Shown piece by piece: positions 8,289 to 29,655 of a DNA stretch of 32,000 nt (its first letter is position 1; the number at the start of each line of letters is the position of its first letter). The DNA is taken from positions 570,001 to 602,000 of the forward strand of contig NZ_JAGIOS010000003.1 of the NCBI RefSeq assembly GCF_017876815.1, given 5' to 3'. The position numbers and the translations under genes are program-made. The notes beneath the pieces were generated by a model that was not told where the DNA came from, searched no databases, and was given only the letters and a program-made list of their open reading frames with translations. The DNA comes from Sinorhizobium meliloti (lineage in GTDB: Bacteria > Pseudomonadota > Alphaproteobacteria > Rhizobiales > Rhizobiaceae).

Positions 8289-9026
8289 ATGACCCATTCC
8301 ACGCTGCCGCCTCAGCCATTTGCAATCCTTGCAATGCCAAGGACCGGTACACACTACTTGGAAGAATTGGTGAACGAGCATCCGAATGTATTGAGTAACG
8401 GTGAATTGCTCAATACGTACGACACGAACTGGCCTGATAAAGAACGCCTGCTACTCAGCGATCGAGAGCTTCTTGAGCGTGCCTTCTTGCGCTATCCCCC
8501 ACAAAGCGACAAGAAGGTGACCCATGTGGGTTGCAAGATCAACGAGCCTCAGTTTCAGGAGCGTCCGAGCTTTTTTGCCGAGCTGACCGCTTGGCCTGGA
8601 CTTAAGGTTATCCTTGTGATTCGCAGAAACACATTAGAGTCGCTAAGATCGTTTGTGCAGGCAAGGCAAACCCGCCAGTGGCTCAAGTTCAAGTCGGACA
8701 GTTCAGCTCCTCCACCTCCGGTGATGTTGCCATTCGCCACCTGCGAAGCCTACTTCAAAGCTGCCGACGATTTCCACGCTCGAGTGGTGAACGCCTTTGA
8801 TTCAAGCAGGATACGTTTAATCGAGTACGAGAGGCTCCTTCGCGATCCCCTCCCTTGCGTGGCAAAGGCCTTAGATTTCCTCGGCGCTCCTGCCCTACAG
8901 CTTGCTGATCGCGGTATTCTTCGGCGTCAAGAGACGCGTCCGTTGGACCAAACGGTACGGAACTTTCATGAGTTGCGGGTTCACTTCGCGAATGGACCTT
9001 ACGCGAGGTTCTTTGAGCTTGCGTAA
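8289..9026 (+). CDS. nodH: Nod factor sulfotransferase NodH (last codons replaced by the IS end)
   Basis: 245-aa ORF with a PAPS-binding-loop-like MPRTGTHYLEEL and its own nod box. The stop TAA (9024..9026) lies inside the left inverted repeat of the inserted IS66-family element. Confidence 0.92.
   Translation: MTHSTLPPQPFAILAMPRTGTHYLEELVNEHPNVLSNGELLNTYDTNWPDKERLLLSDRELLERAFLRYPPQSDKKVTHVGCKINEPQFQERPSFFAELTAWPGLKVILVIRRNTLESLRSFVQARQTRQWLKFKSDSSAPPPPVMLPFATCEAYFKAADDFHARVVNAFDSSRIRLIEYERLLRDPLPCVAKALDFLGAPALQLADRGILRRQETRPLDQTVRNFHELRVHFANGPYARFFELA
9015..9022. repeat. 8-bp target-site duplication GAGCTTGC (left copy) of the outer IS66-family element
   Basis: An identical octamer abuts the other IS end at 17358..17365. 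Confidence 0.9.
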
Positions 9027-9341: not shown

Positions 9342-9791
9342 GTGACCATTCATTACCCACATCATCCGCTTTTTGGGAAGCGCGTGAGACGTCAGGGCGT
9401 CGATCATCGCAAAGGCGGGGCGGTCGCGCACATCGAGACGACGCCCGGTAATGTCATTGTCATTCCGACGTGGATGCTGGATCCGATTGCCTGTGCGGGC
9501 ATGGAGATTGGCGAGCCCCGTGCTTCCCTTGAAGCGCTCATTGAACTCGCCAGTCTATTGACCCCTCAAGGTGAGAGGGCACCCTCGTCAACTGCCAAAG
9601 CAGTTGACGAGGAGGTTCCAGATGAAACTGCCAACGCCAATTCCACCCGAGGGTCCGCGCCAGATGATCATGGCGTTCGACTCGGTGAAGACGCGTGGGA
9701 TGAGCCCGCGCCAAAGGGAAGCCGCACTGATGGCATTGGCCATGTTGTTGATGGAGGCGGCCTGTGTAGCGGAGAAGGAGGCGCCGCATGA
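9342..9791 (+). CDS. Hypothetical small protein (HYPHHPLFGKR motif), first gene of the recombinase element
   Basis: The ORF is in frame with track ORF 9309..9791, whose TTG start lies 3 nt inside the element end, so GTG 9342 is a more plausible start. The N-terminal ~95 aa look protein-like (VTIHYPHHPLFGKRV...VIVIPTWMLDP...LEALIELASLL). The stop overlaps the recombinase start as ATGA. The C-terminal half is low-complexity and overlaps an alternative ORF. Confidence 0.4.
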   Translation: MTIHYPHHPLFGKRVRRQGVDHRKGGAVAHIETTPGNVIVIPTWMLDPIACAGMEIGEPRASLEALIELASLLTPQGERAPSSTAKAVDEEVPDETANANSTRGSAPDDHGVRLGEDAWDEPAPKGSRTDGIGHVVDGGGLCSGEGGAA

Positions 9792-9801
9792 ACGCGTTTA
9801 G
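9622..9801 (+). CDS. Alternative small ORF (59 aa) upstream of the recombinase
   Basis: ATG preceded by GAGGAGG at -13..-7. The product is MKLPTPIPPEGPRQMIMAFDSVKTRGMSPRQREAALMALAMLLMEAA... It overlaps ORF 9342..9791 in another frame, so only one of the two is likely to be real in this stretch. Confidence 0.3.
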   Translation: MKLPTPIPPEGPRQMIMAFDSVKTRGMSPRQREAALMALAMLLMEAACVAEKEAPHERV

Positions 9802-11863
9802 CCCTCTGCCGCCAGCGCTTCTGAAGCGTAAAGCCGTCGTCTATGTGCGACAATCGAGCCAAAGCCAGGTCATGCAAAATCTCGAGAGCCAACGGCGCCA
9901 ATACGATCTTGTGGATGCTGCGCGCCAGCACGGTTTCCGACGGGTCGAGGTGATTGATGATGACCTCGGATTGTCGGCGAGCGGCGCGGTCGCCCGTCCG
10001 GGGTTCGAACGTCTTGTCGCCTGGCTCTGCGCCGGAGACGTCGGCGCCGTTTTGTGTTTCGATGCTTCGCGTCTCGCCCGAAACGGGCGTGACTGGCATC
10101 ATTTGCTCGAACTTTGCGGCCTCGTGGACGCCCGCGTCATCGACCAGGACGGCGTCTATAATCCGTGCTCTCCTAATGATCGTTTGCTTTTGGGCATGAA
10201 GGGCACGATCAGCGAGTTCGAGCTTGGCATTATTCGCGCGCGCATGCTCGACGCTGCGCGTGCCAAGGCCAGACGCGGAGAGCTGCGCATCAGCGTTCCT
10301 ATCGGTTATATCTGGTACCGCGATGCGGGCCTTGGTTTCGATCCGGATCTGCGCGTGCAGGAAGCCGTCCGTCTGATCTTCAGCCGGTTTCGAGAGCTGA
10401 GAAGCGGTCGCCAGGTACTGTTGTCGCTGACGGAAGACAAGCTTTGCTTCCCACGTCCGACGGACGGACGCAACACGACGACTTTCGACTGGACACCGAT
10501 CCGATATCGCAATGTCATCTCGGTGCTAAAGAATCCGTTTTACGCTGGCGTTTATGCTTACGGCAAAAGCGAGAAGCGCACCGAGATTATCGATGGCCGC
10601 GCCCGCAAGACCTATGGCCATGGCAAACCGAAGGAGGAGTGGGAAGTTTTTCTCAAAGATCACCACGACGGTTATATCGAATGGGACGAATATGAACGCA
10701 ACCAGGCGCTGCTCGCCGCCAACGCCTATGGGCAAAAGGGCGGTGCAAAATCGGGCCGCGGTGGGCGTGCGCTGCTTTCTGGGCTCCTTTCCTGCGGTCG
10801 TTGCGGGCGGCGCCTGTGCGTCGCCTATACCGGCAAAACGCCACGTCCGGTTTACCGCTGCGAACGCCCCAATTTGATGTTAGGACTCAATCGATGTCTT
10901 GGCTTCGGCGGCCCGCGAATTGACAAAGCGGTTGCCGCGGAGCTTCTGCGCGTAGTCCAGCCGATGGCGATAGAGGCGGCGATGCAAGCTGAACACATGC
11001 AGTCTGAGGCGCGAGCTGAACGCCGCCGCGCCGCTGAACTCGACCTGCAGAAGGCGCAATATGAAGCTGCGCTCGCAGAACGACGCTACGCCGCCTGCGA
11101 TCCCGACAATTGCCTGATCGCGGCAACGCTGGAGAAGAACTGGGAGGTCGCTTTAAAACGCCTGGAGGCCTGCAAGACACGCCTTGACGCCGAACAGCTC
11201 CCGGATACCCCGGCAAAGCTGCCTGATTTAGATGGCTTGGCGGAAGATCTGCAGGCCGCCTGGAATGCGCCGGGCGTCAGCACGCGGGCGCGGCAGCGCC
11301 TCGCGCGGGCGCTGATCAAGGACATCATCGCTGATGTCGACGAAGAAGCGCGCGACGTCGTCCTGACAATCCATTGGCAGGGTGGTCAGCACTCGCAACT
11401 GCGCGTCAGAAAGCCCAAGACCGGCGAACATGGTTGCAATACGTCCGAAGACGCTCTTGAGGTCATGCGTTCCATGGCTGGAAGATGGAGCGACAGCGAT
11501 ATCGCAGCCACTCTCAATCGCATGGGCATACGCACAGGCTTTGGCCACACCTGGACGGCTCACCGCGTCTCTTCGATCCGCCGTGTCAACGATATTCACG
11601 CATACTTTTCTGCCGAAAAGAGCGGCAAATGGCTGACGATGACGGAGGCGGCCACCAAACTCGGCGTGACAAACCACGTCATCCGCAACCTGATCAAGGC
11701 AAAAATCCTGCCGGCCGAACAAGTCGTGCCCAGAGCGCCTTATCAGATTAAAGCCGTTGATATCGAACGCGAAGATATCATTGAAGCGATTAACAATAGA
11801 CGACGGAAACGCCCATATCGCGACCCTCGGCAAATCGCCCTTCCAATAAATTCAATTACTTAG
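9788..11863 (+). CDS. Large serine recombinase (resolvase/invertase catalytic domain + recombinase domain + zinc ribbon + coiled coil + C-terminal HTH)
   Basis: 691 aa. Catalytic-serine motif VVYVRQSSQSQ...Q and DASRLARN. The recombinase domain contains NPFYAGVYAYG. Zinc ribbon: CGRCGRRL...YRC. A coiled-coil segment follows. The C-terminal part has an MerR/excisionase-like HTH (LTMTEAATKLGVTNHVIRNLIK). GGAGAAGGAGG lies upstream of the ATG. Confidence 0.9.
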   Translation: MNAFSPLPPALLKRKAVVYVRQSSQSQVMQNLESQRRQYDLVDAARQHGFRRVEVIDDDLGLSASGAVARPGFERLVAWLCAGDVGAVLCFDASRLARNGRDWHHLLELCGLVDARVIDQDGVYNPCSPNDRLLLGMKGTISEFELGIIRARMLDAARAKARRGELRISVPIGYIWYRDAGLGFDPDLRVQEAVRLIFSRFRELRSGRQVLLSLTEDKLCFPRPTDGRNTTTFDWTPIRYRNVISVLKNPFYAGVYAYGKSEKRTEIIDGRARKTYGHGKPKEEWEVFLKDHHDGYIEWDEYERNQALLAANAYGQKGGAKSGRGGRALLSGLLSCGRCGRRLCVAYTGKTPRPVYRCERPNLMLGLNRCLGFGGPRIDKAVAAELLRVVQPMAIEAAMQAEHMQSEARAERRRAAELDLQKAQYEAALAERRYAACDPDNCLIAATLEKNWEVALKRLEACKTRLDAEQLPDTPAKLPDLDGLAEDLQAAWNAPGVSTRARQRLARALIKDIIADVDEEARDVVLTIHWQGGQHSQLRVRKPKTGEHGCNTSEDALEVMRSMAGRWSDSDIAATLNRMGIRTGFGHTWTAHRVSSIRRVNDIHAYFSAEKSGKWLTMTEAATKLGVTNHVIRNLIKAKILPAEQVVPRAPYQIKAVDIEREDIIEAINNRRRKRPYRDPRQIALPINSIT

Positions 11864-19637: not shown

Positions 19638-19915
19638 ACATAGCCTCACTCAACGGCCGGTAAGCAGCCGCCCCTGCACTTCACTATCCATCATACAGGG
19701 TCTTCACCCGGCGCGAGCTCTGTTAAGGAGACTCTTGAAACGGGTTTCAAATGCCCATTGCATGCAGCGCTGATGGAAGACCGTCGAGACCGGCTTGCTG
19801 TCGAGGCCGCCGTCGGGCACGCGCCCGCCTCGGCAAGGCGGTCGGGGGACGCCCTGTCAAATTTTCAGGAGAGAGCGATCGCTAGAGGAGGTTGGCTCCG
19901 AATACGTGGCCTTTC

Positions 19916-21101
19916 GGACCTGCCACTGAACTTTTCATCCAGCGGCGATTAGAGCCTCGACCGTTTTCGATACACCAACTGGCTCGGTTGCGGCGATGAT
20001 CCCAGGATAGGCTGCCGGGGTGCGGTATCCGAGCGACGAGTGCGGCCGGAACGTATTGCAGTCGTCGACCATTTGGAAATGGCCCTGCTGGCATGGCTGA
20101 GACCGAAGAACAGACTCTCGTTCAGCAGCTCGTCGCGCATGCGGCCGTTGCACCTCTCGACATAGCCGTGTCTCACATCGGCTTTCCCGGTGCGATGTAG
20201 TGCCACTCGACTTTGTGCGCCTTCGATCAGGCAAGGATGGCTTCCGAGGTGAACTCCATGCCATGATCGGAGACGATCATGCCAGGTTTCCCGCCCGCGC
20301 CGTTCAAGGAGCGCCGTCACCTCCCGTGCTACACGACGCCGGGCGATCGAGGTGTCTGGGATCGCTGCCAGACATTCGCGCGTCACGTCATCGACGATGT
20401 AGAGCACACGGAACCTCCTTCCGCAGGCGAACTGGTCGTGTACGAAATCCAGCGACCAGCGGGCATTGGTTTTAGCCTTGACGAGGATCGGCGCACGCGT
20501 GCCGACGGCACGCCGTCTGGCTTCCGTTTGCGAACCGAAAGCGCTTCCTTGCGGTACAGCCGATAGACGCGGTTGACCCCGGACGGCTCTTCTCCCGCCT
20601 GAGCAGGACGAACAGCCGCCGATAGCCGAAGCGCCGTCGCTCGTTGGCGAGCTCTCGCAGTCTCGCTCGCAGTTCGACCTCCGGCGGTCGGCAAGACCGA
20701 TAGCGCACCATCTTCCGATCAGCGGATATGATCTGGCAGGCCCGCCGCTCCGAGAGGCCCATGACGGTCTTCAGATGGGCGACGGCTTCACGCCTGGCGG
20801 CAGGCCGTAACATTGAAGAAGCTCGCGGAGTGCGGCGGCACCCAGCATCTGCCCGGACAGCATCTTCTTCAGCTTGGCGTCCTCCTCTTCGAGCGCCTTC
20901 AGGCGCTTCGCCTCGGAAACCTCCATGCCGCCGTGTTTGGCTTTCCAGTTGTAAAAGGTCGCTTCCGAAACCCCGTGCTTGCGGCAGAGCTCAGCCACCT
21001 TCGCACGGCCTCCTGCTCCTTCAGCATGCAATAATCTGCTCTTCCGTAGATCTCTGCTTCTTCGATGCGTCCGTCCTGAGAAAATTACCGGTGGCAGATC
21101 A
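19916..21101 (-). mobile_element. Decayed IS3-family insertion sequence (IS407-like size, about 1.19 kb)
   Basis: The imperfect terminal inverted repeats are GGACCTGCCACTGAACTTTTC (left) and TGATCTGCCACCGGTAATTTTC (reverse complement of the right end). The internal orfA and orfB fragments are in several frames. Confidence 0.8.
19935..21060 (-). pseudogene. IS3-family orfA/orfB transposase, multiple frameshifts
   Basis: orfA-like: TEEQII..LKEQEAG..KVAELCRKHGVSEATFYNWKAKHGGMEVSEAKRLKALEEEDAKLKKML. orfB-like pieces: SERRACQIISADR..., RRRFGYRRLFVLLRRE, MLYIVDDVTRECLAAIPDTSI, YVERCNGRMRDELLNESLFF, NTFRPHSSLGYRTPAAY. These are spread over at least 4 frames or ORFs. Confidence 0.8.
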
Positions 21102-21880
21102 CGTCTTCCATGCGGTCGATTTGCATCTCGGGGCAATGAGTCTTCAACCATACCCAGCGCGCATGATGGGATACGCACTTTGCATGGCGTGGGCTGACCG
21201 GTGGCCACTAATATGGCCATCCTTTATCTGACTATCGGAGCGACGCGATTGATGTACTCAGGAAACTCCCGGAGAGAAGGCGCTGCCACGGCAGATGGTC
21301 TCGCTCCGAACGCCGCGCACAGGTTGACCGGGGCGTCCTCGTCCTCGGCCATGCCGTCGAAATTCGAGTGGTGCGCACCAGTGACTTCTGATTGGTATGC
21401 CCAAGAGGCTGCTGACCTTTAACGACAGGGAAAGGGCCAAGCGGGTCTGCATGAGGCGGCTCGGGCTGACTCATCGATGATTCGCAGCCGGTGGCCGCCT
21501 GGCACCCCTGGCGGAAGAAATGGGGCACTAGAAGGTGCGCTCTGCCCACCGCGCTCGCACGACAATTCCGTTCGCACGTGGAAGGCGATCGTAGGTAAAT
21601 GTCAGGAATGCTCCACGCAACGAAGTGACGCTTCGCTGGGTTTCGGCGGCCTTGAGCTCGGCCAGCTCTTCAGAAGGTCGTGTGCATTCGTCCGTCGGCC
21701 GACAAGCGTATGTGTTCCTTCGGTGCCTGACGCCTGAGACTAGCATGTCCGAGCGCCAGTTGGTCTTGCATCGAGTGCATTGAACAGAGCTGTCCTGCCG
21801 TGCTGACGACGTCCGGCGAAATGTTCGCCTTTACTGATTGGTCGGATGGTGACCTTTCAACTATGGATACAAACGAAGAC

Positions 21881-22822
21881 ATGCGTTTCAAAGGTCTTGA
21901 TCTAAATCTCCTCGTCGCACTCGATGCACTGATGACCAAACGAAGCGTTACCGCAGCGGCACGCAGCATCAACCTCAGTCAACCGGCAATGAGCTCGGCC
22001 ATCGCTCGCCTACGCTCCTATTTCCAGGACGAGCTTTTTAGGATGCAAGGCCGCGAACTTATCACAACACCGCGTGCGGAGGCACTCGCCCCTGCGATCC
22101 GGGACGCCCTGCTGCACATACAGTTCTCCATCATTTCCTGGGACATGTTCAACCCAGCCCAATCGGATCGATGTTTCAGGATCATTCTTTCCGACTTCAT
22201 GACACTCGTATTCTTTGAGAAGGTCGTGGAGCGCGTGGCTCGGGAGGCTCCCGGCGTCAGCTTCGAGTTGCTGCCTCCCGACGACAATCCCGACGAGCTT
22301 CTCCGGCGCGGTGAAGTCGATTTTCTGATTTTCCCGGACGTGTTCATGTCGAGCGTACATCCCAAAGCGAAACTGTTTGACCAGACACTGGTTTCCGTCG
22401 GCTGCCTCACGAACGAACAGCTGCTAGGGGATCTCTCGTTCGAGAGATATATGTCGATGGGGCATGTTGCAGCCCAGTTCGGACGTGCGCTGAAACCCTC
22501 CGTCGAACAATGGCTATTACTTGAACACGGATACAAGAGACGTATCGAACTCGTCGTGCCCGGTTTCAATTTGATTCCGCCGCTGCTTTCGGGAACCAAA
22601 CGTATAGCCATTATCCCATTGCGGCTGGCCAACCACTTTGCGAAAAGCATACCCTTGCGGATCGTCAAGCATCCGCTGCCACTCCTCTCGTTCACGGAGG
22701 CTGTCCAGTGGCCGGCTCTCCACAACAAGGATCAGGCAAGCATCTGGATGCGGGAAATTCTTTTGGATGAGGCCGCCCGAATTGCTGCTCCGCGCGAGAC
22801 CGCAGGGTGTCTTGGGCGTTAG
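21881..22822 (+). CDS. nodD3: LysR-family nodulation regulator NodD (NodD3 by position next to syrM)
   Basis: Canonical NodD N-terminus [45 protein letters not shown], starting at ATG 21881. The track ORF adds 27 non-conserved upstream codons, back to 21800. Confidence 0.9.
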
Positions 22823-24413: not shown

Positions 24414-24731
24414 TCACGCGGCAAGTATGTCAGCCGCGACATGAGTCTGGCAGTCCCTGGGGCAGACGCGGGCGCATGCTCCGCAGCCGATGCAACGGCC
24501 ACGGAAGTCGACGACCATGATCATACGATTGAGCTCACCACCGAAATCGTCCTCTTCGCCATCGAATGGGCCGAGAATTTCACCTACATCATCTATGCCG
24601 TGAAGGTGCATAACCTCGCGCGAGCAGACTTTAAAGCAGCGACCGCAGCCGATGCAGGTCGCACCGTCGATGGCGGATAGATATTTTGGCATCCATCTGG
24701 ATCCGTCGCGCGTCACGAATGAGCTTATCAT
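24414..24731 (-). CDS. fdxB: nif-cluster ferredoxin III (2x[4Fe-4S]-type)
   Basis: 105 aa with two cluster motifs, CIGCGRCFKVC and CIGCGACARVCP, separated by an acidic insert. It lies downstream of nifX, and its start overlaps the preceding small ORF stop (ATGA). Confidence 0.88.
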   Translation of the reverse strand: MISSFVTRDGSRWMPKYLSAIDGATCIGCGRCFKVCSREVMHLHGIDDVGEILGPFDGEEDDFGGELNRMIMVVDFRGRCIGCGACARVCPRDCQTHVAADILAA

Positions 24732-24931
24732 TGTGCATTCTCCGACTCAGCAAGTTCTCTTTTCACAGCGTCCAACTCAGCAAAAGCGCGAAACGCTTTT
24801 TCCGCGACTGCCATGATTTCGGTCCACTTACTTGGAAGATCCTCCGCGAGGTCGTGCAATTCCATCATTGCAGTTCCGGGCCCGCGACTGCAGTTTCCGC
24901 ATCCGTTTCCTCAGTTCTTCAGATCTGACAT
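24728..24931 (-). pseudogene. Small nif-cluster protein (DUF683/Rop-like type), disrupted by compensating frameshifts and an in-frame stop
   Basis: ATG 24931 (preceded by AAGGGGAAGAG) gives MSDLKN and then a stop. The next frame reads ELRKRMRKLQSRAR. The original frame then resumes as AMMELHDLAEDLPSKWTEIMAVAEKAFRAFAELDAVKRELAESENAQ. A 46-aa product from ATG 24868 remains possible. Confidence 0.55.
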
Positions 24932-25411
24932 GATCTCTTCCCCTTCATCCCAAATATGGATGAGTTCGCGCACTGCGACCGCATCGTTGACCAGCTTCGT
25001 ACTGCCTTGGCCGACCTTCAAAGCGTGTTAAAGGTGAATCGGTGCACGTCACAAAGGGCCTTCAGCACTCGACGAGCCGTTTGGTCGTAAATAGCACTCG
25101 CCCTAAACTCTCACTGGCGGAACGGCGGAACTCTCCGCCGGCGAGATCATTGAGATCTTTCCTTCCTCGATAGAGCGGTCGACGGCCCCTCCACAGCCAG
25201 CCGGATCAGGAACCCTCGATTACCCGGGATGGCGCGGCGCTGTTCTTCATGACGGGAAGTTCACCAGTAGCTCGGCACCGCACTTGCGCTCCGACGATGC
25301 TTAGGGATCCTGAGCATGGATCGGCCCAGGAGGCCGCCAGATGAGCGGAGCGGAAAGGGCCTTGCTATCATTGGCGGCAGGGGCGACCCGCGGGATCAGT
25401 AACGGGCTCAT
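24932..25411 (-). pseudogene. NifX-associated protein (DUF269-type) pseudogene
   Basis: The start ATG overlaps the nifX stop (TGATG). Family-like blocks are scattered over three frames and separated by stops: ALSAPLI..IHAQD, GAELLVNF, EEQRRAIPG, (V)PDPAG, LWR, SLGRVLFTTKRLVE, LKALCDVHRFTFNTL, TKLVNDAVAVRELIHIWDEGEE. Confidence 0.6.
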
Positions 25412-25911
25412 CATTCAGTCTCGTCCTCAAAGTCGGCTCTCTTTTTAGCTGCACCTGCATCCGCCAACATTTTGCGCAGCCAAGGTGGAGGAGCCGTCTG
25501 GAGCATTGTCTGGACGCTCGACAATACTTGGCTCATGGAGACAGCCTGCTGTGCTTTGATCGGATGAATCTTTGCGGAAATTACCTTGGCGGCCGAAGGA
25601 CCGCCGATGGCGAGACAAAATAAAAGCTGGCAGCCCTTCAACGCGGACACCCTCGACCGGATGCGGCCGTCACCTTCAGTGCGATGCCTTCCGCTCTCGT
25701 CCGAAGCGTCATCGAACTCAATGGCTTCCATGAACTGCGACTTGTGAGCTGTCACGTCGTAGATGGCAAAACGCTTGGCCGACCCGAAATGTGCGTTCAG
25801 CCCTTTCATATCTTCAGTAGCAATCGCAATGCGCAATGCGCCTACCGGCCGGTCCGAAATCTCTCTCTGGGACTGATCGCTGACGAGCGAGAGACGACGA
25901 ATGGAGATCAT
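25411..25911 (-). CDS. nifX: FeMo-cofactor biosynthesis protein NifX
   Basis: 166 aa. RIAIATEDMKGLNAHFGSAKRFAIYDV...ALKGCQLLFCLAIGGPSAAKV is typical of the NifX/NafY dinitrogenase-cofactor-binding fold. It lies between nifE and fdxB. Confidence 0.88.
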   Translation of the reverse strand: MISIRRLSLVSDQSQREISDRPVGALRIAIATEDMKGLNAHFGSAKRFAIYDVTAHKSQFMEAIEFDDASDESGRHRTEGDGRIRSRVSALKGCQLLFCLAIGGPSAAKVISAKIHPIKAQQAVSMSQVLSSVQTMLQTAPPPWLRKMLADAGAAKKRADFEDETE

Positions 25912-26096
25912 TTGGCAATTCCCCGACTACAGACTGCATTTAGTGGGTGTCGCGAGAGGAGTGCAAGAAGTTGGAAAGTTCGGAGTGAAGCCGGATGTAT
26001 CGCGCAGAAAACACGCTGCAGCGGGCAAACCTCTAACAAACCAGAAAAATAGGCGTTGGCGAGTAGCGGAGGCGCATTCGCGCCTCCGCTCTCTCA

Positions 26097-26130
26097 GAAC
26101 CGTGCGTGAACCTCTCAGTTCACACGGCTC
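26097..26130 (-). ncRNA. Group II intron domain V (catalytic hairpin)
   Basis: The minus strand reads GAGCCGUGUGAACUGAGAGGUUCACGCACGGUUC, a 34-nt hairpin with the consensus GAGCCGU...ACGGUUC flanks and an AGC-type triad context. It starts 3 nt after the IEP stop. Confidence 0.85.
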
Positions 26131-26133
26131 CCA

Positions 26134-27393
26134 TCAGGCAAACGTGCCGATCAGACCGAGTTGCCAGTGCACAAAGAGATCGGTGCGCTGCTCGACGAGC
26201 CGTTGTAAGAACCGACTTGCCCGAGCCTTACCCCTGCCAAAGCGCTTGAACTTCCGCCTTGCCCACGCAAGCATCGTCTGATTGACGTAGCGAAGTATGG
26301 GCTGCAGCCCCGTTGGCGCGTACCGTCCATAATAGCTGATCCACCCCCTGAGGAGCGGATTGATCAGCCGGGCGATGTCGTTCAACGAGAGCTGCGTCTG
26401 TCGGCGGATGTGCAAGTCCCTGATCTTTTCCCGCATCGCTTTCAGCGCCGAGGAACTGACCGCTGGTGTGAAGCCGCAAAACAGTCGCCCGCTTTGCGTT
26501 CCCCATACCGCGCGCGGTCGGAAGCAATATCCGAGGAAGTCGAACGTCACATTCGGATGTTGCCCTCTGCGTTTGGAGTCTCTGCAGTAAACGATCTTGG
26601 TTTTGGTGGGATGCATCTCCAGTTGGCACTCCGCCAGCCTCGCCTGAAGTGCGGCCTTGACGGCCTCCGCTTCCTGCTCGCTCCGGCAGTGCACCAAACC
26701 GTCATCCGCATACCGACACCATGGGAGGTCGGGATGTGTCCGGTCCATCCACAAGTCAAATGCGTAGTGCAGGAACAGATTTGAAAGAATCGGACTAATC
26801 ACGCCCCCTTGCGGGGTGCCGCAATCACGCTCTATTCTTTGTTCATCTTGTTCCATGGGCGCCGTCAGCCATCTTTCGATGTAGAGCAACGCCCATTTGC
26901 ACTTTACATGCTTGCGGACAGCCTTGAGCAATAGTTCGTGGGAGATGTTGTCGAACAGACCCTTGATGTCGAACTCTAAAACCCAATCATATTTCCAGCA
27001 CCGCTGACGCGTGATCCCCACGGCATCGAGCGCCGATTTGTTCGGCCTGTAGCCGTAGGAATCTTTCAGGAAGATCTGATCGAGTTCCGGTTCGATGAGC
27101 TGCTTGACCACCATCTGCGCGATCCTATCGCTCACGGTGGGCACACCCAAAATCCGCTGGCCCCCAGTCTTTTTGGGAATGGGGACGGCTCGCACCGGTG
27201 GCGGAAAGTAGCTTCCCGAACTCATCCTATTCCAGATCTTGTAGAGATTACCCTTCAAGTCGGCTTCGAACTGCTCGATCGTCTGCCCGTCCACACCGGC
27301 CGCACCACCATTGGATTTGACCGCTTTATAAGCTTCGTACACCAGCCGCTTATCGATCCTAAACGGCTTGTCTGTCGTATCCGCCGACGTCAT
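26134..27393 (-). CDS. Group II intron-encoded reverse transcriptase/maturase without endonuclease domain
   Basis: 419 aa. RT blocks include RILGVPTVSDRIAQ, DIKGLFDNI, GTPQGGVISPILSN and YADD at residues 228-231. The maturase X motif is LLRGWISYYGRY. There are no Cys pairs or HNH motif in the C-terminal 90 aa. Confidence 0.93.
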   Translation of the reverse strand: MTSADTTDKPFRIDKRLVYEAYKAVKSNGGAAGVDGQTIEQFEADLKGNLYKIWNRMSSGSYFPPPVRAVPIPKKTGGQRILGVPTVSDRIAQMVVKQLIEPELDQIFLKDSYGYRPNKSALDAVGITRQRCWKYDWVLEFDIKGLFDNISHELLLKAVRKHVKCKWALLYIERWLTAPMEQDEQRIERDCGTPQGGVISPILSNLFLHYAFDLWMDRTHPDLPWCRYADDGLVHCRSEQEAEAVKAALQARLAECQLEMHPTKTKIVYCRDSKRRGQHPNVTFDFLGYCFRPRAVWGTQSGRLFCGFTPAVSSSALKAMREKIRDLHIRRQTQLSLNDIARLINPLLRGWISYYGRYAPTGLQPILRYVNQTMLAWARRKFKRFGRGKARASRFLQRLVEQRTDLFVHWQLGLIGTFA

Positions 27394-28227
27394 CCTGTTT
27401 CCAGTTGTTTCGAAAATACGACCACCTGACCCGACCCCTTCGCTCCAGCCCCATTACAGGGCCTTCAACGCTAATACGGGTCGATCCGTCCCAGCTTCCT
27501 GCATCGGTACTCTCGCCTCGCGGTGATGTGCCGCTTGTGCTTCTCCCTTGGCATCAGAAAGCTGGTTCCTGCAGTTCCACGCAAAAGCCTGCATCCGTCT
27601 CATGCCCCCTATACGCCGTCCACTGTCCGCCCAGTCATCAGGCTCCCGACGGACTTGTCCCGAGAGATCCATACACCCTCGGTTTTAGTGGTGGTAAAGA
27701 GTTCTAACGACGCGTCATCGAAGGGTTTGCTTGCGCTCATCTTCCGGATGCCTACCTGCCCCGGATCATGTCCGCGGCTTTTGACCCAACGCTCACCACC
27801 ATGGCTCTTCTACCACAGCAGCTTGGGCTGGTTTGAGACCCGCTCCTGAAAGCCGATCCCGAGGGGCCTACCCTCATCTTTCACGCAGCTTCTCAGCATG
27901 TTGTCAGTTCGCCATCGAACCTCCTTCTGCTTGCTGCAGCACACTATGGACGGGCACTAGCGTAGTTCACGTCGCTTTATTTCCTAGATTGCTTCAAGTG
28001 CTTCCGCGACTGTCCAGCCTGGAGATACCGCCGCGCCCAGAAGCTTGGCCTCCTTTTCCTGCTCAAGTTTCATGCACAAAAACTCTAGTGCCTCCTGGAC
28101 CGTTGAATGTGATTCCCCGGACCTACGATATGGACGGATGAAATCGATGGCGATATGGCACAGACCTTCCTCCTTCAGGCGACGACAAGCTCACCGAAGT
28201 TGCGGGGGATCTTGCCGCTAAGCTAAA

Positions 28228-29655
28228 TCACAGTAGCGCTTCCTCCTCGGACATCTCCTCTCCTCGCGCAGGAGCCATCTCCCATGGCGCCGGTTCGCGC
28301 ACCTGCGCCCAGATCGGGTTGTGGATTGATAGGTCGATCTGGCGCGCGAGTTCCACTACGCCGTGGTAGCCGGCGTAGGAGTGCTGGCGCTCCTGGTTGA
28401 TATCGAGCCAGGGCATTTTGGCCTTGAGCGCTATAAATTGGGTGCGTCCGCCCGACAGCATGATATCAGCCTTATGATCCGATAGAGCCGAGTAAAGCTC
28501 GCGCGGCGTCGTCGCCCCACTCATACTATCGTTCGTGAGCATCTGCTTAAGACGCTCCTTATCATTGTCTGTCGATTTCTTAATTGACGTACCCGCGATT
28601 TCCAATCCGATCTCCATCAGCGCATGTGCGACGGACCAGGATTTTACCCCCCCGGTATTGAGAAGCACGCGCTTGCCTTGCAGCCGAGGTCGATAGACCT
28701 CAAGTCTCCTCCACGCCCTTGCCTCTTCTTCTACGATCAGTGCTTCGGTGCGACTGATTAGGTCCGGACCGGCTCCTTGCTTTACAAGCAGTCCAGCGAT
28801 CTGCCTGAGTGCTTCCGAAGTGTCGGTGATGCCATAGAAAGAGCCCTCGAAAAAGGGAATGTCCCAGCGCTCCTGCATCTTGCGTGCGAGATTGATGAGC
28901 GCCGTTGAGCACACCATCATAGCTGCGCGTGCTCGGTGCGCTGTGGCAATATCGAGATAGCGCGAGTCGCCTGGAATACAGGCGCGGACGCGAACACCAA
29001 GCTTGTCCAACAGCGGCCTTACCTGCCAGAATTCGCCGGAGAGGTTGAATTCGCCAAGGATATTGATGTCGCTAGACCGGGCATCATCGGGCTCTACGGT
29101 CCCGATGACATGATCGAGCAAGGCTTCCCCCGCCAGTTTGTTGCCCAGGTTCTTTGAGCCGGCGAAGCCCGGCGCATTGACCGGCACGACCGGCAAGCCG
29201 AACTTTTCCGCCGCACGCCTGCACACCGCGTCTATGTCGTCGCCAATCAGTGCCGTAACGCAGGTCGCATAGACGAAGACCGCCGCCGGGGCATACGCCT
29301 CGTTGATCTCGCGGATTGCTTTGAAGAGCTTTCGCTCGCTATGCCCCATCACCACGTCGAATTCGGTAACATCAGTGGTAAAGCTTGTGCGCCACAGCAT
29401 GTGACTCGAAGAAGCCGTGCCGCGATTGTCCCAGGAGTTGCCCTCACAGGCGAGCGGTGCATGGATCAGATGTGCGACGTTGGTGATCGGCTGCAGTGCC
29501 ACCTTTGCCCCGTCAAATGCGCAGCCGCCGGCTGCCGCGCCCGGCATCGGCGGCTGCGAACAACCCTTCTTTCGCACCTTAAAGTCCTTGCTGCGGTTTC
29601 TTTCGCAGGCAGGTTCGTTGAAGAAGTCCTGATTTTTAGCACTGAGCGAGGGCAT
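28228..29655 (-). CDS. nifE: Nitrogenase FeMo-cofactor scaffold protein NifE
   Basis: 475 aa. GCAFDGAKVALQPI, IHAPLACEGNSWDNRG and the overall NifD-like architecture. It lies downstream of nifK, and GGAGG precedes the ATG. Confidence 0.93.
   Translation of the reverse strand: MPSLSAKNQDFFNEPACERNRSKDFKVRKKGCSQPPMPGAAAGGCAFDGAKVALQPITNVAHLIHAPLACEGNSWDNRGTASSSHMLWRTSFTTDVTEFDVVMGHSERKLFKAIREINEAYAPAAVFVYATCVTALIGDDIDAVCRRAAEKFGLPVVPVNAPGFAGSKNLGNKLAGEALLDHVIGTVEPDDARSSDINILGEFNLSGEFWQVRPLLDKLGVRVRACIPGDSRYLDIATAHRARAAMMVCSTALINLARKMQERWDIPFFEGSFYGITDTSEALRQIAGLLVKQGAGPDLISRTEALIVEEEARAWRRLEVYRPRLQGKRVLLNTGGVKSWSVAHALMEIGLEIAGTSIKKSTDNDKERLKQMLTNDSMSGATTPRELYSALSDHKADIMLSGGRTQFIALKAKMPWLDINQERQHSYAGYHGVVELARQIDLSIHNPIWAQVREPAPWEMAPARGEEMSEEEALL

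Follow-up and report, generated by a model that had tools for sequence, protein, structure and literature searches.

How did a complete group II intron come to lie inside a nitrogenase gene cluster, and is the site that it occupies an accidental one? The question is raised by 32,000 nucleotides (nt) of Sinorhizobium meliloti DNA (assembly GCF_017876815.1, contig NZ_JAGIOS010000003.1, positions 570,001 to 602,000; hereafter the window), in which the intron stands between nifE and nifX. An earlier note on this DNA had left the choice between an intron related to RmInt1 with a different exon-binding site (EBS) specificity and an insertion at an ectopic site. Our comparisons identify the element as RmInt2, an already named and experimentally characterized mobile intron of S. 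meliloti (Martinez-Rodriguez et al. 2014, RNA Biol 11:1061; PMC4615759), so that it is not new. We consider it highly probable that an intact RmInt2 was recently inserted into an orphan end of an ISRm17-like insertion sequence (IS) in the nifE-nifX spacer.

The group II intron is genuine, far beyond chance. It is a full-length element of 1,887 nt on the minus strand (26058 to 27944; 5' GUGUG ... CUACUCGCC 3'), delimited by an empty site, by Rfam, and by comparison of copies. Both ends are base exact, from the G of GTGTG at 27944 to ...CTACTCGCC at 26058, and the junction is unambiguous, because the spacer of SM11 in the plasmid collection is intron-less at the same site; it reads ...GCTAGTGCCCGTCCATA|AACGCCTATTT at the junction and ...ACGCTAGTGCCCGTCCATA|AACGCCTATTTTTC... 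over a longer stretch. The element had been correctly recognized from sequence with limits of 26049 and 27960, which this empty site shows to be slightly too wide on both sides, whereas the 5' junction proposed at that time holds. Comparison with intron-less spacers also sets the 3' junction at 26058|26057, with A at 26057 as intron-binding site (IBS) 3.

The description of a complete intron with a GUGUG end, domains V and VI, and a 419-amino-acid (aa) reverse transcriptase (RT)/maturase with a YADD motif, an X domain, and no endonuclease (En) domain was upheld by Rfam and Pfam. Rfam RF01999 (group-II-D1D4-2, the D1-D4 part) matches a domain I segment at 27754 to 27875 (-) over the full model (107.3 bits, E 1.9e-21), and RF00029 (domains V/VI) matches 26132 to 26058 (-) with 58 bits (E 4.4e-9); both scores exceed the gathering thresholds. 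The hallmarks of group II introns (a GUGYG end, the AGC triad of domain V, and the bulged A of domain VI) are all present. Domain V (26097 to 26130, minus strand), located by RF00029 and by its fold, has 34 nt with the AGC triad and a 2-nt bulge, and folds as ((((((((((((((....)))))..))))))))) at -17.6 kcal/mol. In domain VI (26061 to 26095, minus strand) the loop is a GAAU tetraloop, and the branch point is a bulged A at 26064, which lies 7 nt from the 3' splice site. The intron-encoded protein (IEP) is specified by a 419-aa open reading frame (ORF) in domain IV (26134 to 27393, minus strand) and consists of RT and maturase X without a D/En domain: RVT_1 covers residues 72 to 289 (E 7.9e-42), YADD starts at residue 228, GIIM covers residues 317 to 391 (E 2.2e-16), and no further Pfam domain and no HNH/En was found after residue 391. 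Its C terminus, L-QRL-V-EQR-T-D-LFVHW, keeps the LFVHW and the spacing of the class D motif LX3AX3PXLF[V/A]HW, with V and T at the A and P positions; this motif was counted as conserved in RmInt2 (PMC4615759).

RmInt2 of S. meliloti GR4 is a class D, En-less intron for which splicing and retrohoming were shown experimentally; it is published as 1,887 nt long and as present four times on pRmeGR4c and three times on pRmeGR4d (PMC4615759). We gathered 20 RmInt2 copies from GR4 and other assemblies by means of the exact IEP sequence. The window intron is identical to 11 of the 20, these 11 sitting in ISRm17 ends in other assemblies, and it differs from all seven GR4-derived copies at 3 of 1,887 nt (positions 311, 755, and 1715; 99.84% identity). 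The closest nif copy, in GCA_028895005.1, is 1 nt away: comparison of the window with contig JAJJBI010000002.1 of that assembly gives a single base difference, and it falls inside the intron. The IEP is identical across all collected copies, including an exact match on CP003937.2 (pRmeGR4d). The window copy also carries the RmInt2 features of a GAAU loop in domain VI, published as specific to this intron (PMC4615759), compensatory changes in domain V, and an EBS2 shifted by one base. Length, near-identity, identical IEP, GAAU loop, and EBS2 shift together therefore identify the element as RmInt2.

The idea of a related intron with different EBS specificity was thus the right one, at 75% nucleotide and 73% IEP identity to RmInt1, and that of a novel element falls, since the intron had already been described. 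In plasmid BLAST, RmInt1 copies match the intron at about 77%, and the nine intron places found on pRmeGR4c resolve into five RmInt1 and four RmInt2 copies. RmInt1 and RmInt2 are both class D and En-less in S. meliloti, both have a 419-aa IEP of RT plus X without D/En, and both home into an IS element, with a preference for the lagging-strand template. They differ in that RmInt1 homes into ISRm2011-2 and RmInt2 into ISRm17 ends, in EBS1, EBS2, and EBS3, in the 1-nt shift of EBS2 with its 2-nt linker, in the size of the domain VI loop (4 nt in RmInt2 versus 6 nt), and in the compensatory changes of domain V. With the GR4 element, the window copy shares the length, the IEP, EBS1, an EBS2 of GAACU, a U-A EBS3-IBS3 pair, the GAAU loop, and the target from -16 to +7. 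GR4 also has a nifE-nifX insertion, on pRmeGR4c, which evidently belongs to the four pSymA copies already published; the nif region of the window is 99.3% identical to that of GR4. The window differs from GR4 in the substitutions at 311, 755, and 1715 and in an SM11-type spacer that lacks a 59-nt segment.

Another RmInt2 copy, at 99.5% identity, was seen on a 161-kb S. meliloti plasmid (CP050560.1, 120413 to 124089), where it lies in two pieces over 3,677 bp, either because about 1.7 kb interrupts it or because the arrangement is partly tandem. Head-to-tail double insertions of RmInt2 have been reported (PMC4615759).

The specificity of the intron can be read from its pairings with the exons. 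EBS1, UAUGGAU (27667 to 27673, minus strand), lies in the loop of the hairpin CCGAG...CUCGG (27682 to 27660) and pairs 7/7, with one G-U, with IBS1 GUCCAUA at 27951 to 27945, exactly as first proposed. The accompanying proposal that an EBS2 of GGGCA pairs with UGCCC failed. The EBS2 stem-loop that aligns with that of RmInt1 contains no GGGCA; this pentamer occurs at intron positions 184 and 338, in the ribozyme part upstream of the ORF, and four times inside the IEP ORF, and two of the five bases then taken for IBS2 fall on exon positions -9/-8, an unselected linker in selection experiments (PMC4615759). Those experiments defined EBS2 as GAACU (PMC4615759), which in the window lies at 27700 to 27704 (-), aligns with the RmInt1 EBS2 AUGAA with a shift of 1 nt, and pairs 4/5 with IBS2 AGUGC, leaving exon position -11 unpaired.

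The residues that selection found to matter are C-16, T-15, IBS2 AGT(G/T)C at -14 to -10, IBS1, A+1, and A+2 (PMC4615759), and every one of them is present in the nif spacer. The 5' exon, which is the outer 16 nt of an IS end (27945 to 27960, minus strand), holds C-16, T-15, IBS2 AGTGC (27958 to 27954), the linker CC, and IBS1 GTCCATA (27951 to 27945); the 3' exon, the inner part of the IS end (26000 to 26057, minus strand), holds IBS3 A at 26057 and A+2 at 26056. EBS1 fits (G/A)TCCATA, and with A as IBS3 the EBS3-IBS3 pair is U-A. The same spacer contains a second IBS1 heptamer, GTCCATA at 28135 to 28129 (-) within CCGTCCATA (28137 to 28129), 185 nt upstream of the one that is occupied. IBS2, C-16/T-15, and A+1 are missing there, and no intron is present; as an internal control, this second site shows that IBS1 alone is not enough.

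Where does a native nif spacer obtain such a target? Once the intron is taken out, the spacer can be aligned to nt 1 to 76 of ISRm17 with 60/76 identities (79%; E 7e-14), starting exactly at IS nt 1, so that 27960 to 27945 plus 26057 to 26000 constitute an orphan ISRm17-like terminus. The target is identical to the canonical RmInt2 site in ISRm17 at all 23 bases from -16 to +7. Complete ISRm17 elements encode a 444-aa DDE_Tnp_1 transposase and carry RmInt2 16 nt inside either terminus; introns are common in both ends of intact copies. The two ISRm17 ends with RmInt2 read CTAGTGCCCGTCCATA|AACGCCTGTTTTTCAGG... and CTAGTGCCCATCCATA|AACAGCAAG..., and the nif spacer junction reads CTAGTGCCCGTCCATA|AACGCCTATTTTTCTGG..... 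The occupied exon site, CTAGTGCCCGTCCATA|AACGCCT, is identical to the ISRm17 end that serves as the natural target, and its 5' exon recurs as the ISRm17 terminus in GR4 and other assemblies. In the nifE-nifX interval there is no DDE transposase gene and no complete ISRm17, only the 76-nt end, and this single end is all that was found when a second IS end, a miniature inverted-repeat transposable element structure, and further ISRm17 fragments were sought in the window. The earlier note had judged the exon sequence unlike the RmInt1 homing site; the flanking spacer is essentially part of a known IS target, a finding that the note itself had named as one that would refute its reading.

SM11 and 2011 have the IS relic without an intron, and so, with substitutions, has Sinorhizobium medicae WSM419, where the target reads CTAGCGACCGCCCATA. 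If the intron homed into this end, the sequence expected in intron-less strains is CTAGTGCCCGTCCATAAAC. The same kind of end is used outside Sinorhizobium: RmInt2-like introns in ten Mesorhizobium/Rhizobium contigs and in Mesorhizobium amorphae share the 5' end with the window copy, and all follow the IS-end 5' exon (C)TAGTKYCCRTCCATA. Unlike the window copy, they adjoin a DDE transposase (as in M. amorphae CCNWGS0123 pM0123d, whose copy is 92.5% identical), are at least 8% diverged, lie in complete IS elements, and were in no case seen in nif operons. Published RmInt2 targets are likewise ISRm17 inverted repeats, whereas the window target is a solitary diverged IS end in a nif operon.

On contig JADZOE010000003.1 of GCA_028888165.1, IS elements and introns form a densely nested array. 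Several ISRm17 copies directly adjoin one another, and RmInt2 occupies one end or both ends of each; one 5' exon, ...GTTTATGGATGGGCACTAGA|CTAGTGCCCGTCCATA, consists of two abutting IS ends.

The sequence of events that we favor is as follows. In both S. meliloti and S. medicae, an old orphan ISRm17-like end of about 76 nt forms part of the nifE-nifX spacer, and the S. meliloti fragment has kept all bases needed for recognition by RmInt2, with C-16 and T-15 read by the IEP. A ribonucleoprotein (RNP) of RmInt2 from another copy would then have reverse-spliced into this site; since the IEP lacks an endonuclease, priming of the cDNA would presumably have taken place at a replication fork. RmInt2 prefers, by experiment, targets in which the sense strand is the lagging-strand template (PMC4615759). 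On the 1.418-Mb replicon pRmeGR4c of GR4, repC lies at 2.3 to 3.5 kb and the intron at 1.007 to 1.010 Mb on the minus strand; on pSymA of ABS7, where repABC lies at 1.420 to 1.423 Mb, nif at 0.576 Mb has the plus strand as its sense strand, which is the same relation as in GR4. Given bidirectional replication, the sense strand of the intron is the predicted lagging-strand template of pSymA. This, with the orientation of the relic, would account for an insertion in the sense direction without a selective explanation.

The age of the two components can be compared directly. The relic is 21% diverged from ISRm17 and the intron 0 to 0.16% from active copies, which marks the former as old and its occupation as recent. 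Among PLSDB plasmid records, 57 matched the joined flanks in plasmid BLAST with a query coverage of 80% or more, and only pRmeGR4c of GR4 had flanks plus intron. The 5' junction of the filled allele, GTGAACTACGCTAGTGCCCGTCCATA|GTGTGCTGCAGC, had 0 exact matches in the GTDB species representatives. With its intron removed, the window is identical to the empty allele of SM11 (0/3,564 differences), and the filled GR4 allele differs from the empty allele of 2011 at 7 of 1,222 positions, while the flanks of window and GR4 differ at 30 of 3,553 positions and by a 59-nt indel. The latter is a presence/absence polymorphism at 25985/25984, between the IS relic and nifX; the segment, TCTTCGACCGCCT..ATGTTCTG, is present in GR4, 2011, and S. 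medicae WSM419 and absent from the window and SM11, and about half of the pSymA records in PLSDB have this longer form of the spacer. Between window and GR4, divergence is 3/1,887 (0.16%) in the intron versus 41/4,951 (0.83%) in the flanks (Fisher p = 0.001), and the three GR4 variants are common to the nif copy of GR4 and the other RmInt2 copies of that genome. Both filled alleles are nearer to an empty one than to each other, which makes recurrent, independent retrohoming the simplest reading and suggests two such events, one in the window lineage and one in GR4.

A single ancestral insertion, spread across pSymA backgrounds by homologous recombination or concerted evolution, is the alternative that fares best, and we regard it as unlikely but deserving of some weight. 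Megaplasmids of S. meliloti recombine, and gene conversion could also yield the identity of intron copies within each genome. The allele relationships just described speak against it, as does the size of the exchange that it needs. The nearest differences between the haplotypes lie 46 nt upstream and about 72 nt downstream of the junctions, so any recombination tract would have to be almost exactly the size of the intron.

Far less likely is ectopic retrotransposition, or a novel intron, at a non-IS nif site with a fortuitous EBS-IBS match. Such an origin would sit well with the missing transposase and complete IS between nifE and nifX, and with a spacer that is native nif DNA common to 57 Sinorhizobium records. 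It is opposed by the 23-base identity with the canonical target, by a similarity that runs for 76 nt from the exact IS terminus, by the IBS1-only site at 28135 to 28129 that stays unoccupied in the same spacer, and by the identity of the intron as RmInt2 itself. RmInt1 provides the closest comparison: its ectopic insertions (in oxi1 and in an NAD(P)-oxidoreductase gene, in GR4-type populations) likewise lie outside a functional IS, in mimics of the homing site, and recur in nature, but they occupy coding genes that have only IBS similarity, whereas the window site is intergenic and IS derived. By its target, the event at nifE-nifX is homing into a fossil site and not true ectopic transposition.

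The surroundings of the intron bear on what it may do there. A partial nifD (in the upstream part of the cluster, within 24.4 to 32 kb), nifK (31250 to 29709), nifE (28228 to 29655; 475 aa; Pfam Oxidored_nitro, E 1.2e-98), the intron, nifX (25411 to 25911; 166 aa; Nitro_FeMo-Co, E 1e-18), and an fdxB-type 2x[4Fe-4S] ferredoxin gene (24414 to 24731; 105 aa; Fer4 families) all lie on the minus strand, nifX and fdxB downstream of the intron. The sense orientation first reported for the insertion is therefore correct, as is the distance of about 280 nt from the nifE stop (283 nt); that to the nifX ATG is 146 nt and not about 137.

Simple consensus scans for a sigma-54 promoter (TGGCAC-N5-TTGCW with up to 2 mismatches; GG-N10-GC) gave nothing convincing on the sense strand of spacer and intron, the best spacer match reaching 6/11, and no NifA upstream activating sequence (UAS; TGT-N10-ACA) or sigma-70-like site was found on that strand ahead of nifX; nor was there a terminator-like hairpin on the sense strand from 25912 to 28227. 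One paper names a NifA-regulated "nifHDKEX" operon. The sigma-54, UAS, and sigma-70 scans and this usage agree with the view that nifX lacks an obvious promoter of its own and, with the absence of a terminator, make co-transcription through the intron plausible. The best sigma-54-like match in the region, TGGCACAGACCTTCCT at 28156 to 28171 (+), has one mismatch and is antisense to nif; sigma-54-like matches in the window number 17, against 16.7 expected by chance.

We infer that the intron would be transcribed within a NifA-dependent nifHDKE(X) transcript and that nifX and fdxB would be expressed by read-through and translated from their own ribosome-binding sites, spliced or not; their dependence on such read-through is plausible. 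Splicing, which had been thought possibly necessary, is not required, because the intron lies in an intergenic spacer and nifX can be translated from unspliced RNA; what counts for nifX is solely whether transcription reads through and whether the RNA is stable. With its own IEP, RmInt2 is poorly excised (PMC4615759).

A wider scenario is improbable when all of its parts are taken jointly. In it, transcription driven by NifA and sigma-54 would make intron RNA, IEP, RNP, and mobility inducible by microoxia or symbiosis; nifX-fdxB would depend on read-through of a 1.9-kb ribozyme; recurrence would reflect either a hot orphan target or selection on nifX/fdxB dosage; and the orphan end would perhaps be the scar of the rearrangement by which nifN became separated from nifE-nifX in Sinorhizobium. 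A search of the upstream spacer for nifN or other gene remnants gave no match (Pfam, three-frame translations, E up to 1), and an origin of the orphan end as a scar of nifN rearrangement is so far without support.

Might the copy be a dead relic that neither splices nor moves? The poor splicing of RmInt2 with its own IEP is compatible with this, and the window copy is known from its sequence. We nevertheless think a dead copy very improbable: its IEP matches that of the mobile GR4 element at every residue (100% identity), the single ribozyme substitution relative to GR4 (position 311) is common to 11 copies across ISRm17 ends, and domains V and VI are intact. Splicing and retrohoming activity of the window copy would follow from its identity to the active GR4 element. 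That the intron entered a complete ISRm17 in the spacer, which later decayed or was deleted to leave one end plus the intron, would agree with the published placement of all copies in ISRm17 inverted repeats and with the frequency of introns in both ends of intact elements, but is the least credible of the alternatives, given that the empty alleles of SM11, 2011, and S. medicae hold only the diverged 76-nt end, that the relic is 21% diverged against 0 to 0.16% for the intron, that the window flanks equal empty SM11 over 3,564 nt, and that none of 58 plasmid records with the spacer has a full ISRm17-like element at the site.

Several points weigh against recent homing of RmInt2 into the orphan end as we have set it out. 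The 2014 paper places all GR4 copies of RmInt2 in inverted repeats of ISRm17 copies (PMC4615759), and the nif site, with one diverged end and no transposase, is unlike these; either the wording there is loose or its Fig. S1 treats the site differently. The lagging strand was assigned on the assumption that replication proceeds in both directions from repC to a terminus roughly opposite. Independent insertion is drawn from two haplotypes only, and import of the intron by a very short tract, with crossovers no more than 46 nt away on the upstream side and about 72 nt on the downstream side, would mimic it. The promoter scans, being consensus scans, are weak negative evidence, and expression and splicing of the window copy are predicted from its sequence.

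Beyond the intron, the nif cluster of the window contains a 46-aa ORF (24728 to 24868, minus strand) that ends at the start of fdxB and has a Rop-like match (Pfam PF05082, E 4.9e-16) spanning profile positions 22 to 63 of 64 only. The 680-nt gap between nifX and fdxB (24732 to 25410) has no Pfam match in any ORF besides this one and may hold decayed remnants of the genes that usually accompany nifX. Positions 1 to 23000 of the window are the nod region of pSymA, with genes for a nodQ-like APS (adenosine 5'-phosphosulfate) kinase/GTPase (3577 to 1652), a nodP-like PAPS (3'-phosphoadenosine 5'-phosphosulfate) reductase-family protein (4476 to 3577), a nodG-like short-chain dehydrogenase/reductase (SDR; 5627 to 4890), a nodE-like ketoacyl synthase (7329 to 6121), a nodH-like sulfotransferase (8289 to 9026), and two LysR regulators (19150 to 18170 and 21800 to 22822). 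Interspersed among these are a large serine recombinase (9788 to 11863), one intact and one truncated IS66 transposase (14483 to 12876 and 16321 to 15368, respectively), and IS fragments around 19900 to 21200.

The element is known from the Toro laboratory, and its presence brings no new kind of biology; its location in a fossil IS end of the nif operon and its apparent recurrence there are small additions to the RmInt2 literature. In the literature searched, which did not extend to the copy map in Fig. S1 of PMC4615759, no explicit mention of a nifE-nifX intron was found. The locus suggests that a decayed, solitary IS end can stay a homing site long after the IS has been lost, and that such an orphan end can draw a mobile intron into an essential symbiotic operon, here seemingly at least twice. 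The window allele and SM11, with identical flanks, form a natural near-isogenic pair of filled and empty sites, which would be suited to measuring the effect of a group II intron on nifX and fdxB in a polycistronic mRNA.

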